Assembly: GCA_020536535.1 (NCBI GenBank)
Contig: JAHLWZ010000184.1
Span: 12,209 to 31,797, forward strand
Direction of reading: 5' to 3'
Length of the DNA stretch: 19,589 nt
Origin: Pelomyxa schiedti
Lineage: Eukaryota; Protista; Evosea
Of the stretch, positions 15,832 to 19,049 are shown piece after piece. How positions within the stretch are numbered: the stretch's first letter is position 1; each line of letters opens with the position of its first letter. Below the pieces are notes generated by a model. The model had not been told where the DNA came from, did not search any database, and worked only from the letters and a program-made list of their open reading frames with translations. The translations under genes were made by a program, and so were the position numbers.

Positions 15832-18800
15832 CCATTATTCGACGGTAATAAGGAACAAAGTAGCTGTACACCCTGGTGGAATAAATGCAAATGAGGTTCT
15901 TTCTTGTTCAGCCTGTGTGGAATAGTTAGTGATACACCGGCACCCCACAACCACTATTTTGTTGTTATTGTTATATGTCCCTGTTGCCCTTGTTTGAGCA
16001 ACCCTGACCCTCGCTTGTACTGTATATTCCCCAGTATGAACTTCCCGCAATGTATATTCAAATGGGCCAAGTCCTGCCGGAGTTCCGGACGAAATTCTGC
16101 CTCCGGATGAGGTGTGGTTGTTCCAGATACTGCATTTCTCACCACCAGGTTCAGTAATGTGCAGCTCCACGTCCGCGGACTCGGAATTGGTCCACAGACA
16201 AATGCGGAGGTCAAGAGGAACTGCGGCCGGGGTTGGAATGAGGCCAGGCGGGATGATTTGCGCAAAGCGATACCTGCAGAGTTCCAGCCGGGCCGTGAGT
16301 TGGATTCCGAAGTCCTGGGCTCTGCATACCGCGTCACCAGTGGCTATATGGTAGAGCTCCTCCAGCATTTTAACGGCCCTCTTGTTGGTGTTGAAGTTGG
16401 AGCTCTCTGCATGGAGAAGAGATACTACGGCGTGGAGTAGTGCTTGAACTTGTTCTGGTCGTAGGTAATGTACGGCAGACCACAGTTTGGCAGTGTGTTC
16501 CCACATTCCCAGTGCTTCGCATACTGTGGCCAGCATCTGGACTGGAACGGGATCGCCTGGTGAGTCCTCAACTAGTTTACTAAGGGCAGTGAATATGCGG
16601 TCGTACTCTGATTCAGGAAGTAGGATACTGCCATCTCTGAGTTCAGAAAACTGGTTAAGGAGAGTTGATAAGTGGAATTCTCCTGCAAAGTCATTCATGC
16701 ACTGCATTGGTGATCCTGACCAGAGCTTAAGCATGTAGGAGCGAATGGGAATTTCTGACTGCATAGCGAAGTTAGTACCATTTAAATTTTTGCACCTCTT
16801 TCTGTCTACTTGGGTCTGAGGTATACTGCACGACGGATGGTAGGTTGGATGTGACGGAGTGTAAGATCGAGAAGGGAGGATGGTTTGCAAAGAAGAGCGG
16901 ACGACAGTGCCCATTTGGGCAAGGGTAGTTGGAATTAGTTCCGGTTCCCCAAAGCGGGAGTCATTGGTAGATATTTCTGAAGGGAGTTCGGGTTCGGGTG
17001 ACAGCCAGGTTCGATCACGCAAGGTTCCATTACATTCAGCCAGCTCCCGCAATTGGCACTTTTTCCACTCATTGGTAGATTCGTCCATTGGGGTTAATAA
17101 AGGCTTAACAAGATCGGATGCCCTAGCCAGCTGCTCCTGACTATCTCCCGTCACTAGAACGTGTAGAGGCTCATCACTTGAGCTTTTAGGTGCAGAGTCC
17201 CTCGCCCTGGATCCCTCTTTGATGGAACCCTTGCCTCGTATGCTAATTTTTGCACCACTTTCAGACTCGATACGCTTTTGTGTCTTTCCACGTGGTCCAA
17301 TGAGTAGACCAATGAAATTGTAATCAGGAAATTGCGCGTCCGGAATAGGTATTTTCAGTGCCAGTTTCTCAGGTTCTGGAGGGGAAAGGGCCTATTTGAA
17401 CGTAAGTTAGAAGGAATAGTATTTGGCTTACATACCAGTCTTTTATCAAGAGGGATAGTATAACCTTTCCTATTTTTCCAATTTGAAATGCATGGTGGTA
17501 TCTTCCACTTCTCTAGATCATTGGATTCCACCTTCAGCTTCTTCCTTGATTTATCTTGCGGTTCAGTTACACACTCTTGGTACCCGGTGGTTACCACTTG
17601 GGCTTCTGCTGAACCCAATCCAGTTTCCATAAAATGGGCGAACTGAGAAGGAATGGATCTCTCCTCCACAGTACCACTTGCCCACATACAGAAATTTCTC
17701 CAAAGAACTTCAGCAGCTCTTAAGGATCGCTGGGCTATTCGGTACTGCGAAATTTCTCGTTCTTTCTTACGTATCGAATTTTCTCTCATGTATTCGGCAT
17801 GCATTGTGACCTGGCTTGGATGAGGGGTCACCTGGTGGGAAAGATACTGTTCAAGTGTGAATAAGACAATGAAGGAGCATTCGGGTCCGCATATGCAATA
17901 CTGTTGGCAAAATTCGACAATAGAAGACGTTTCTGCGTTTAGATCACGCATGTGTTCGAGCCTTAGTAACGCCCACTGTCGGGAGATTATGGAGCCGATT
18001 TTTTTCTCTCTTGAAAATTCATGTTGCAAGGGCAAAGAGAACGAATTGGTTTGAATATCCTCCCCACCCTGTACAAATTTAACCTCAATGCTTGAGTCAG
18101 AGTGAGGAAATTGTTCCACTCTTCCGCACACCAAGAATGGCTCCAATTCGGAAATTGTACTAGTGTTGCTCAGGTCTGCTGTGCAACCTTTCTGTCGTAC
18201 ATCAGCAGTAATCCTACTACCTTGTACTATCTCTGCAGCTTTGAGTGGCTGACAGACTGCCAAGTTGATGTATATACCCCCACTGATGCGAGAAATGGCT
18301 CTAAGAGTTGATTCATTGTGCTGTGAGGCAGTAATAGTATCACATATAGTGAAGACAGGTAAGCATCCAAAGTCAAAAGCACTCGAGTCACCAGTAGAGA
18401 GAGTATCCACACCGTCAGAAAACATAACCCAGATGTGGTAGTGGTCAGAATTGCTTCGGCACCATTTGGCAAGTAATGACAAGTCAGTGGCTCCGGAATA
18501 GTAAATCGTTTCAATTGACTCCATAAGAGTCTGTACTGGGTCTGACCTTTGCCATGAAGACCGCTTATGAATACTGCAAGAATCAAAAGTAATAATATCA
18601 GCTGCCACAGGTCCTGCCTGCAAAATTGAAATAAGACATTCCAATTCCGATCTGTGAGAGATATGGTCTCTACTTGAAGAGCAGTCCCATAGAATCCCTA
18701 TCTTTTTGGATGTAGTTCTTGATTCCGGTATTGCTTGTGGAGGACTGGTGCAGACACATAGAAAGAATGTCTCATTAAGCGTATATTCCACATCCATAAT

Positions 18801-19049
18801 AAACTTGGGAAGATTCGGTATTGTGAAGTCTAGCATACTCTCTGGAGTAGAGGACCCACTGGAGTCATATGAGAACTCCAGGAAATCTCCAGAATCAGCA
18901 ACGCTGAAATGAGACAATACTTCTCTGAGTGGAGCACGTAGAGGATGATCGACTTTGACGTCGAAATGAAAAAATCTCAGCAGCTTCGAAAAAGGACTCA
19001 AGTCGAAAGGGAAAGTAAAAGAGGCACAGGCATCACGGACAGTAAGCAT
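15832..19049 (-). CDS. Chimeric-architecture gene in one spliced frame: N-terminal region + vWA domain, then an SF1/BBP-like SPSP-helix-hairpin, then KH-QUA2, then a ~390-aa C-terminal region with a beta-rich domain
   Basis: Two long minus-strand ORFs (19064..17355 and 17154..15835) are joined by a 44-nt GT-AG intron at 17392-17435: GTATGTAAGCCAAATACTATTCCTTCTAACTTACGTTCAAATAG, with a TTCTAAC branch motif.

Upstream exon: ...KKIGILWDCSSS...DIITFDSCS...YYSGATDLSLL...IWVMFSDGVDT...LPVFTICDT...AISRISGGIYINLA (vWA), then ~140 aa of open frame, then TPHPSQVTMHAEYMRENSIRKKEREISQYRIAQRSL (matches the SF1 SPSP + helix-hairpin region), ending ...[11 protein letters not shown]|.

Downstream exon: ALSPPEPEKLALKIPIPDAQFPDYNFIGLLIGPRGKTQKRIESESGAKISIRGKGSIKEGSRARDSAPKSSSDEPLHVLVTGDSQEQLARASDLVKPLLTPMDESTNEWKKCQLRELAECNGTLRD (KH with GPRG loop + QUA2; closest to SF1/BBP). 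There are no CCHC zinc knuckles and no Pro-rich tail. Instead there are 390 aa ending with ...LDLRICLWTNSESADVELHITEPGGEKCSIWNNHTSSGGRISSGTPAGLGPFEYTLREVHTGEYTVQARV..., then TAA at 15832-15834.

The start ATG at 19047-19049 is the first ATG of the open frame. Further 5' exons are possible. Confidence 0.6.
16000..16218 (-). CDS. C-terminal beta-rich domain of the minus-strand chimeric gene. From memory it resembles the DUF2135-type domain that follows VIT/vWA modules in YfaP-like proteins. Unverified.
   Basis: LDLRICLWTNSESADVELHITEPGGEKCSIWNNHTSSGGRISSGTPAGLGPFEYTLREVHTGEYTVQARVRV. The pattern W...D.DLH..EP.G...........GG.......G.GP..Y......G.Y.V is what I recall for that family. There was no database access, so this assignment is a hypothesis. 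Confidence 0.3.
17014..17358 (-). CDS. SF1/BBP-type KH-QUA2 RNA-binding module (STAR family) of the minus-strand chimeric gene
   Basis: YNFIGLLIGPRGKTQKRIESESGAKISIRGKGSIKEG...DEPLHVLVTGDSQEQ...CQLRELAECNGTLRD. This matches the SF1 KH core (NFVGLLIGPRGNTLK...AKIMIRGKGSVKEGK...DEPLHALVTA) and QUA2 (QLRELARLNGTLRE) almost motif for motif. Confidence 0.8.
18255..18704 (-). CDS. vWA domain of the minus-strand chimeric gene
   Basis: DCSSS (MIDAS-like DxSxS), ITFDSCS, YYSGATDL, VMFSDGVD, VFTICDT and ISGGIYINL sit in the expected vWA order and spacing (residues ~121-270 of the open frame). Confidence 0.65.

Follow-up and report, generated by a model that had tools for sequence, protein, structure and literature searches.

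The window analyzed here is a 19,589-nucleotide stretch of DNA from the amoeba Pelomyxa schiedti (contig JAHLWZ010000184.1, positions 12,209 to 31,797). Its minus strand carries a fusion gene that reads as a single uninterrupted spliced frame, with exons 19070-17436 and 17391-15838 joined in phase 0. Along the protein, an ITIH-like VIT-vWA head is followed by a 34-residue fragment of SNW1, the KH-QUA2 module of SF1, a disordered linker, TPR-like helices and a DUF2135 beta-sandwich. We call the SNW1 and SF1 pieces 'guests' and the remainder the 'scaffold', which by sequence comparison is a member of a mostly bacterial VIT-vWA-TPR-DUF2135 family. We hold this architecture and this family membership to be highly probable. 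The ATG at 19049 opens a spliced frame of 1,056 residues that ends in a stop codon at 15835-15837 (minus strand); the underlying long open frames of that strand span 19064-17355 and 17154-15835. In the order of transcription, the features of the gene are the following:

19279..19521, minus strand: exon 1, as in the deposited protein model P0001; C-terminal half of the VIT domain; GC 0.78, GC at third codon positions (GC3) 0.96.
19071..19278, minus strand: intron 1, 208 nt, GT..AG, from the mapping of P0001 and the sequence.
18174..18716, minus strand: vWA domain with an intact metal ion-dependent adhesion site (MIDAS), D210-x-S212-x-S214, T276 and D300 in P0001 numbering; D210 is encoded at 18684-18686.
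17655..18173, minus strand: middle module of the scaffold, a beta-sandwich followed by the LEQYLSHQVTPHPS motif and a long helix; it spans a segment previously taken for an SF1 helix-hairpin.
17436..17546, minus strand: guest 1, the SNWKN fragment of SNW1/SKIP/Prp45; Pfam positions 56-94 of 158, human SNW1 237-270; its end coincides with the intron donor.
17392..17435, minus strand: intron 2, 44 nt, GTATGT...TTCTAAC...AG, phase 0, at the junction of the SNW1 and SF1 guests.
17005..17391, minus strand: guest 2, a complete SF1/BBP KH-QUA2 module; human SF1 131-257, E 1e-28 against solved structures.
16675..17004, minus strand: low-complexity linker after the guests, predicted to be disordered (predicted local distance difference test score, pLDDT, <50).
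16264..16674, minus strand: TPR-like helical repeat of the conserved C-terminal block (C-block); C-block profile E 1.6e-26, pLDDT >90, with TPR matches.
15838..16239, minus strand: DUF2135-type beta-sandwich, predicted TerD-like fold, pLDDT 85-98; the motif alignment agrees.
15913..15951, minus strand: 39 nt removed as an intron in P0001; they encode VVGCRCITNYSTQ, a conserved DUF2135 beta-strand, and are likely coding.

A sequence-only reading of this DNA had proposed one gene joining a vWA domain, an SF1 KH-QUA2 module and a beta-rich C-terminal domain across a 44-nucleotide intron with a TTCTAAC branch site, and both the fusion and the intron are borne out. The strict intron pattern GTATGT...TTCTAAC...AG occurs once in the window, against 0.09 occurrences expected by chance. 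The identical intron is used in P0001, a deposited P. schiedti protein of 1,131 amino acids named 'Branchpoint-bridging protein', to which the product of the window is 99% identical. The gene limits proposed then need revision at both ends: 15832 lies 3 nucleotides beyond the stop codon, and the gene extends upstream of 19049 through the 208-nucleotide intron of the P0001 model into the VIT exon at 19279-19521. The GC3 of this exon compares with about 0.45 in the remainder of the gene. In its support, the profile of relatives from outside Pelomyxa aligns from residue 3 of P0001, the paralog P0002 is similar across the exon, and the AlphaFold2 (AF2) model reaches pLDDT values of 73-92 there. 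Since the frame of exon 1 is open as far as the window edge at 19589, the 5' end of the gene, with more of the VIT domain, may lie beyond the window.

The 39-nucleotide intron that P0001 removes at 15913-15951 is probably false, because alignment shows its residues kept in all paralogs and in bacterial relatives, and because the beta-strand is modeled with confidence when they are retained, whereas local pLDDT falls below 50 when they are removed. The P. schiedti genome was obtained from single cells by multiple-displacement amplification (MDA) and annotated by Augustus, PASA and EVM with RNA-seq data, giving a mean of 7.4 introns per gene (PMC8887013); relative to that mean, the fusion gene is intron-poor.

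Pfam recognizes both guests in the product, the SF1 module as KH-I_KHDC4-BBP (E 4e-23) and the SNW1 piece as a SKIP_SNW fragment (E 2e-16). The sequence-only inventory of the region between vWA domain and tail had correctly named the former and missed the latter. The SNW1 guest is matched in the PDB by phmmer at E 2.5e-13, sharing 24 of 25 residues with human SNW1 246-270; it covers profile positions 56-94 of 158, and the full SKIP_SNW domain and its flanking extended regions are not present. In spliceosome structures, the SNWKN motif of Prp45/SNW1 contacts the N-terminal domain of Prp8 and a U2 snRNA loop (PMC5602110). The KH-QUA2 guest is 47% identical to human SF1, the branch-site-binding residues are conserved, and its model superposes on RNA-bound Msl5. 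Searches of 60-residue fragments of both linkers against Pfam and the PDB gave no guests beyond these two.

Whether P. schiedti has a canonical SF1 gene elsewhere had been raised from the sequence, and it does: P0128, a separate protein of 575 amino acids, carries SF1-HH, KH-QUA2, a zinc knuckle and a Pro-rich tail. Because this canonical protein exists, the fusion gene is not the cell's SF1. Nor does the alternative of an SF1-type protein with additions survive. SF1-HH (PF16275), the U2AF ligand motif (ULM) and helix-hairpin region that binds U2AF65, has no match in the product at E<=1; no zf-CCHC match is found in it either, in agreement with the absence of zinc knuckles seen earlier, and the Pro-rich tail after QUA2 is also lacking. 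The deposited name and the intact KH-QUA2 would suit an SF1/BBP ortholog with lineage-specific extensions. However, that explanation is already refuted unless P0128 is a pseudogene, it leaves the missing helix-hairpin, zinc knuckle and Pro-rich tail unaccounted for, and the protein is mostly scaffold; we give it almost no credence.

The relation of the guest to the canonical protein is informative on its origin. The fusion KH-QUA2 is 69.8% identical to that of P0128, as compared with 88.6% between P0128 and the SF1 of a close relative (P0007) and 77% between P0128 and P0129, which appears to be the SF1 of Mastigamoeba. Similarity of the fusion to P0128 and P0007 stops at RDRTW(L/M).P, just ahead of the zinc knuckle. 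Archamoeba-type residues (PLLTPMDES.NEWKK...RDRTW) are common to the guest and to the SF1 of the lineage, and on this sequence evidence the guest is derived from the lineage's own SF1. Among 215 SF1 proteins, 39 columns are at least 90% conserved, and the fusion copy keeps the consensus residue in all of them; of its 35 differences from P0128, one falls in these columns (hypergeometric P = 6e-7). As the differences avoid conserved SF1 columns, the fold and the RNA-binding surface of the guest appear to have been under purifying selection since copying.

The manner of insertion also left a trace. In the SF1 gene of the close relative (locus L001), which we used as a proxy for intron positions of the canonical P. 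schiedti gene, an intron lies between ...PSFK and PPGDFS..., within 3 codons of the start of fusion exon 3 (ALS-PPEPEK...). That the SF1 guest starts near this position, and that the SNW1 fragment ends at the donor of the 44-nucleotide intron, suggests that the guests were assembled at the DNA or exon level. The relative's locus (European Nucleotide Archive ERZ21831265, ctg82076l, 7400-8900) encodes a canonical SF1, 88.6% identical in KH-QUA2 to that of P. schiedti, and on sequence grounds its source is probably another Pelomyxa-like amoeba; no close ortholog of the fusion from this source surfaced in the search for SF1 relatives. The top match of that search, P0127 (EukProt GHRR01011334.1), was rejected as a fusion relative, being a transcript model with the KH-QUA2 region duplicated. 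The duplication looks like a misassembly, and it inflated the score of P0127.

Turning to the scaffold, Pfam does not call vWA or DUF2135 directly in the product, and in P0001 its VIT match is not significant, the profile of relatives aligning only from its position 74; VIT is called in paralogs of P0001. The vWA domain proposed from the sequence is nevertheless recovered by other routes. The MIDAS residues D210, S212, S214, T276 and D300 are invariant or nearly so in the family alignment, a profile of 45 family members matches the VIT-vWA structures of ITIH4, PARP4 and ITIH1 (E 3.5e-24 to 1.6e-12), and Foldseek retrieves ITIH1 at E 5.5e-17, plus many vWA domains, with the AF2 model. A second profile, built from 98 members from outside Pelomyxa, matches an N-terminal block (N-block) at residues 3-553 of P0001 (E 6e-77) and the C-block (E 1.6e-26), and the guests sit between the two. 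Both blocks are confidently folded in the model, whereas the sequence flanking the guests is disordered; fragments of the linker at 16675-17004 have no Pfam or PDB match, and its family could not be recognized.

Beyond the vWA domain, the middle module contains the segment TPHPSQV...IRKKEREISQYRIAQRSL, which had been likened to the SF1 helix-hairpin. It aligns instead to the scaffold motif LEQYL.H.I.PP.S and the long helix of bacterial relatives (residues 502-546 in the AF2 model). We rejected the SF1 identity: Pfam gives no match, and scaffold relatives from bacteria, which are unrelated to SF1, conserve this same element. The suggestion of a YfaP/DUF2135-like beta-rich tail fared better, agreeing with the C-block match of the relatives' profile and with a confidently predicted beta-sandwich whose nearest solved fold is TerD. 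In NCBIfam, there are only partial, sub-threshold matches, to VIT-containing sortase/exosortase targets and TPR families for the scaffold and to DnaJ and syringactin for guests.

To delimit the family, the N-terminal 470 residues were searched exhaustively against 1.84 billion cluster representatives. This yielded 624 relatives, with P0001 and P0002 alone below 1e-30; the others are at most 36% identical among the matches listed. When the best 43 of the 624 were scanned with Pfam together with P0001 and P0002, VIT appeared in 39 of 45 sequences, DUF2135 in 29 of 45, and TPR as well. Single members of this set carry Actin, Tubulin, Ras/Arf or Synaptobrevin, and every one of these is from P. schiedti. 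Aligned to the 98-member profile, six P. schiedti paralogs each divide into an N-block and a C-block, which are separated at one common position by 339-666 inserted residues. The length of this slot is 342-841 residues in the six, as opposed to a median of 161 (range 7-339) in the 98 relatives from outside Pelomyxa. No recognizable guest was seen in the 148 such relatives examined, nor in the EukProt member P0250. In a Thermoguttaceae metagenome-assembled genome, a locus contains at 7495-12161 a remote bacterial scaffold relative, P0005, whose start overlaps an upstream gene for an extracytoplasmic function (ECF)-type sigma-70 factor by 4 nucleotides, which hints at a sensor or anti-sigma-like setting in some bacteria.

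The slots of the six paralogs hold the following guests:

P0001 (this gene): SNW1 motif and SF1 KH-QUA2.
P0002 (Pelo_6792): YJU2 6-24 (E 0.06-0.1), CRNKL1/Syf3 6-30 (E 0.11) and PRP6 12-48 (Pfam E 7e-8); a 57-residue query had no PDB matches other than those to YJU2 and CRNKL1.
P0239 (KAH3744454.1): a diverged full-length actin, residues 2-375 (E 3e-102).
P0240 (KAH3744382.1): beta-tubulin 108-441, without the N-terminal GTP-binding part.
P0275 (KAH3731978.1): a synaptobrevin SNARE motif and a Rab1-like GTPase with the P-loop strand after the rest and a Q-to-N change.
P0337 (KAH3760613.1): a complete J-domain (E 3e-24) with the HPD motif kept, and a UBC13-like E2 without the catalytic cysteine.

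Within one protein the guests come from one pathway, namely the spliceosome in two members, the cytoskeleton in two, vesicle traffic in one and proteostasis in one. Several look incomplete or inactive: the tubulin is truncated, the P-loop of the Rab is displaced and the E2 lacks its catalytic cysteine. The motif WD[C/H/T]S.S is present in six of six paralogs and in 7 of the 148 other relatives, and a post-helix motif, YDG...QP....HF, in four of six and none of the 148; these shared derived motifs suggest a common origin of the six. In a crude neighbor-joining tree with 50 bootstraps, P0001 and P0002 were sisters in all 50. Of note, the Rab1-like guest of P0275 (residues ~870-1160) is seemingly circularly permuted, with the P-loop strand LIKVVSLGSSGVGKS following the rest of the GTPase, and a long hydrophobic, transmembrane-like stretch comes after it; the protein is deposited as 'TonB-dependent receptor'.

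With the SNW1 guest and the six paralogs, what has to be explained is no longer one odd splicing factor but a scaffold family displaying pieces of hub proteins. Of the two origins offered by the sequence-only reading, that of a vWA-family protein that had captured an SF1 exon block comes nearer to what we find; the capture of an SNW1 piece as well, and the at least five further guest-bearing paralogs, had gone unseen. The architecture, which that reading did not know from described proteins, is not described in the literature. The papers searched contain neither a mention of DUF2135 nor an account of VIT-vWA-TPR proteins, and nothing of relevance about integrated decoys in amoebae; no description of the guest-carrying scaffold family was found.

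Could the fusion be an artifact, that is, an MDA chimera or a merged model of an SF1 gene and an unrelated vWA gene? The assembly does come from amplified single cells, at least one intron of the deposited model is doubtful, and the automatic product names of the paralogs are plainly naive. However, the SNW motif and the vWA domain share one open frame of 1.6 kb, and KH-QUA2 and the TPR-DUF2135 block share another of 1.55 kb. The scaffold is present on both sides of the guests, and the same layout recurs in six paralogs on six contigs. Furthermore, a chimera made from the real gene should match canonical SF1 at about 100% identity; the guest is about 70% identical to P0128, which excludes a trivial assembly chimera. 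We therefore regard an artifact as very improbable.

As the best explanation of the whole we favor a P. schiedti family of guest-carrying scaffolds with a bait or mimic display, akin in function to an integrated decoy, to which we give slightly less than an even chance. A conserved chassis offers one permissive slot between a helical stalk and the TPR block, and in each Pelomyxa paralog this slot holds fragments of the organism's own, highly conserved hub proteins. Under the display explanation, the guests would keep their native fold and surface, so that whatever recognizes SF1 or SNW1 would also bind the fusion protein. The binder might be an effector or protease of bacteria or viruses met by the amoeba, or else an endogenous partner, for instance Prp8 or branch-site RNA. 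Sequestering the binder, or reporting the event, would fall to the vWA/TPR/DUF2135 platform. A display function is favored because the guests are native-like in surface, while several are incomplete or catalytically dead-looking. Taken separately, a bait or decoy function of the scaffold family is possible, though less likely than not, and is proposed tentatively.

A more specific form of the proposal is a Pelomyxa 'bait library' that does not rely on NLR proteins, in which a bacterial-type scaffold would have expanded into paralogs that display copies of hub proteins under attack by intracellular bacteria and viruses, namely Rab1, UBC13, actin, tubulin, VAMP, an Hsp70 co-chaperone and, in two members, core parts of the spliceosome, and that act as decoy sensors or sponges; this form is somewhat more doubtful still. 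Bacterial effectors acting in amoeba hosts classically target Rab1, UBE2N, actin and VAMP, which provides a lead rather than a test. The same is true of E. coli yfaS, which we take to be a bait-and-trap protein of the alpha-2-macroglobulin type. In E. coli K-12 (NC_000913.3, 2327367-2336644), YfaP, the namesake of DUF2135, belongs to an operon of the order yfaA-yfaT-yfaS(pseudogene)-yfaQ-yfaP and continues to be annotated as hypothetical, with no regulator or Gene Ontology class.

The main rival takes the guests as working address labels, making the protein a docking adaptor or a lineage-specific splicing regulator, much like the first of the two options of the sequence-only reading. KH-QUA2 on branch sites and SNWKN on Prp8/U2 would bring the vWA/TPR/DUF2135 platform to pre-mRNA or the spliceosome, where it would compete with SF1 or recruit partners through the MIDAS, and the other paralogs would be addressed to actin, microtubules, vesicles and Hsp70. 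The KH-QUA2 guest suits such a role, being complete, keeping every conserved SF1 position and being modeled like RNA-bound Msl5, as does the J-domain of P0337 with its HPD motif. SNWKN is itself a Prp8/U2 contact (PMC5602110), and guests taken from one machine would raise the avidity of a protein for that machine. However, the fusion has neither the ULM/helix-hairpin that links SF1 to U2AF65 nor the zinc knuckle, and a canonical SF1 is present in P. schiedti. Moreover, the truncations seen in paralogs, such as a tubulin without its N-terminal third or a permuted Rab, should block normal assembly. We consider this reading rather unlikely.

A neutral origin accounts for other features. An insertion-tolerant linker could have accumulated host fragments by exon shuffling or illegitimate recombination, leaving idle guests whose frame is maintained solely by the need for the TPR-DUF2135 block that follows. 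The length of the slot indeed varies throughout the relatives (7 to 339 residues), unrecognizable disordered sequence surrounds the guests, and the actin and tubulin guests are far diverged from normally near-invariant parents. The intron at the SNW/SF1 junction and the start of the SF1 guest, at most 3 codons from an intron of the relative's SF1, likewise suggest patching at the DNA level. This mosaic is weakened by the differences from canonical SF1, which avoid conserved positions (P = 6e-7), and by the SNW motif, identical to the human one at 24 of 25 residues. Furthermore, 11 of 11 recognized guests are conserved hub proteins, grouped by pathway, which is no random sample of the proteome. 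Neutral assembly of this kind is, to our mind, quite improbable.

Several points nonetheless weigh against the bait or mimic display that we favor. The bait or decoy function is putative, inferred from sequence and models; no signaling or death domain was found in the scaffold, and PADLOC defense models gave zero matches to it. The need for an in-frame C-block would keep the guest frame open even if the guest were useless. All of the findings come from one draft genome, obtained from MDA-amplified single cells (PMC8887013), and the other five paralogs are known from deposited protein models only. In P0002, the YJU2 and CRNKL1 matches are individually weak. The neighbor-joining tree did not place the six paralogs in one clade, its distances being saturated. 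Finally, orthologs with the same domain order, for which the sequence-only reading had proposed a search in related genomes, were found neither among the 1.84 billion representatives nor in two viral scans, and a metagenome scan gave one weak match at 29% identity; without an ortholog in other organisms, conservation of the fusion gene over time cannot be judged.

If the guests are functional, they would provide a list of host proteins worth mimicking to an amoeba, the core of the spliceosome included. They would also represent a new candidate principle of immunity or regulation, in a lineage on which intracellular pathogens naturally train, and give a first functional handle on the uncharacterized DUF2135/YfaP family. 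A true bait library would be the first integrated-decoy-like system in Amoebozoa, with SF1, SNW1, PRP6 and YJU2 as guarded targets. If the guests are functional, the scaffold would be a compact natural chassis with one permissive slot, grafted with copies or key peptides of the cell's own essential machines, and the KH-QUA2 copy would be a natural SF1 competitor for tests of branch-site recognition. On the practical side, ortholog assignments and gene counts will be led astray by the names under which these genes are deposited: 'Branchpoint-bridging protein', 'non-muscle actin 6.2', 'Tubulin beta chain' and 'TonB-dependent receptor'.

Open frames resembling a ricin B lectin (RicinB_lectin_2 at 6.5e-6, Ricin_B_lectin at 1.8e-4) lie at 15345-15741 on the plus strand; they are convergent with the fusion gene and end about 100 nucleotides from its stop. 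Neighbors with the appearance of ordinary eukaryotic genes are found at 6890-8890 (plus strand), 10100-11900 (plus strand) and 11976-12443 (minus strand), and comprise an ankyrin-repeat protein, an AAA ATPase with AAA_lid_3 and Vps4_C, and a fragment of an EF1-gamma domain. GC-rich islands at 6500-8000 and 12000-13000 (GC 0.55-0.57) could be the 5' ends of other genes.

Compared with known systems, the fusion resembles SF1/BBP/Msl5 in its complete KH-QUA2, with the highly conserved positions kept, and differs in having no ULM, helix-hairpin, CCHC knuckle or Pro-rich tail and in carrying the module inside a scaffold of ~1,140 residues. With SNW1/SKIP/Prp45 it shares an SNWKN core identical at 24 of 25 residues; it retains ~34 of ~540 residues, and the rest of this extended 'rope' protein is gone. 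Profile and fold matches liken it to ITIH and PARP4, where VIT is also followed by a MIDAS vWA domain and a beta module. In contrast to these, the start of its sequence suggests an intracellular protein, its tail is of the TPR-DUF2135 kind, it carries host-protein guests, and it lacks the ITIH C-terminal domain and the PARP domain. The bacterial VIT-vWA-TPR-DUF2135 (YfaP-type) proteins have an equal domain order and conserved motifs over ~800 residues, but their slot is short, and guests are not recognized in the members scanned or aligned.

Two further comparisons concern function. In plants, integrated-decoy receptors (NLR-ID) are nucleotide-binding leucine-rich repeat (NLR) proteins with integrated domains. 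The Pelomyxa scaffold, in another kingdom and on another chassis, has no NB-ARC/NACHT NTPase, leucine-rich repeat or known signaling domain by Pfam and PADLOC. Like those receptors, the paralogs combine a conserved chassis with differing host-copied domains, many from kinds of protein that pathogens target. In alpha-2-macroglobulin, the bait region is a flexible exposed segment. The fusion has no macroglobulin (MG) or thioester domains by Pfam, and its guests are folded domains as well as peptides. Even so, the Pelomyxa slot would similarly lie flexible and exposed, with a folded block on either side, and could present attackers with substrate-like sequence, and DUF2135 is genomically linked to a bacterial operon of the alpha-2-macroglobulin type, judging from the context of E. 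coli yfaP and from the identity that we assume for yfaS.

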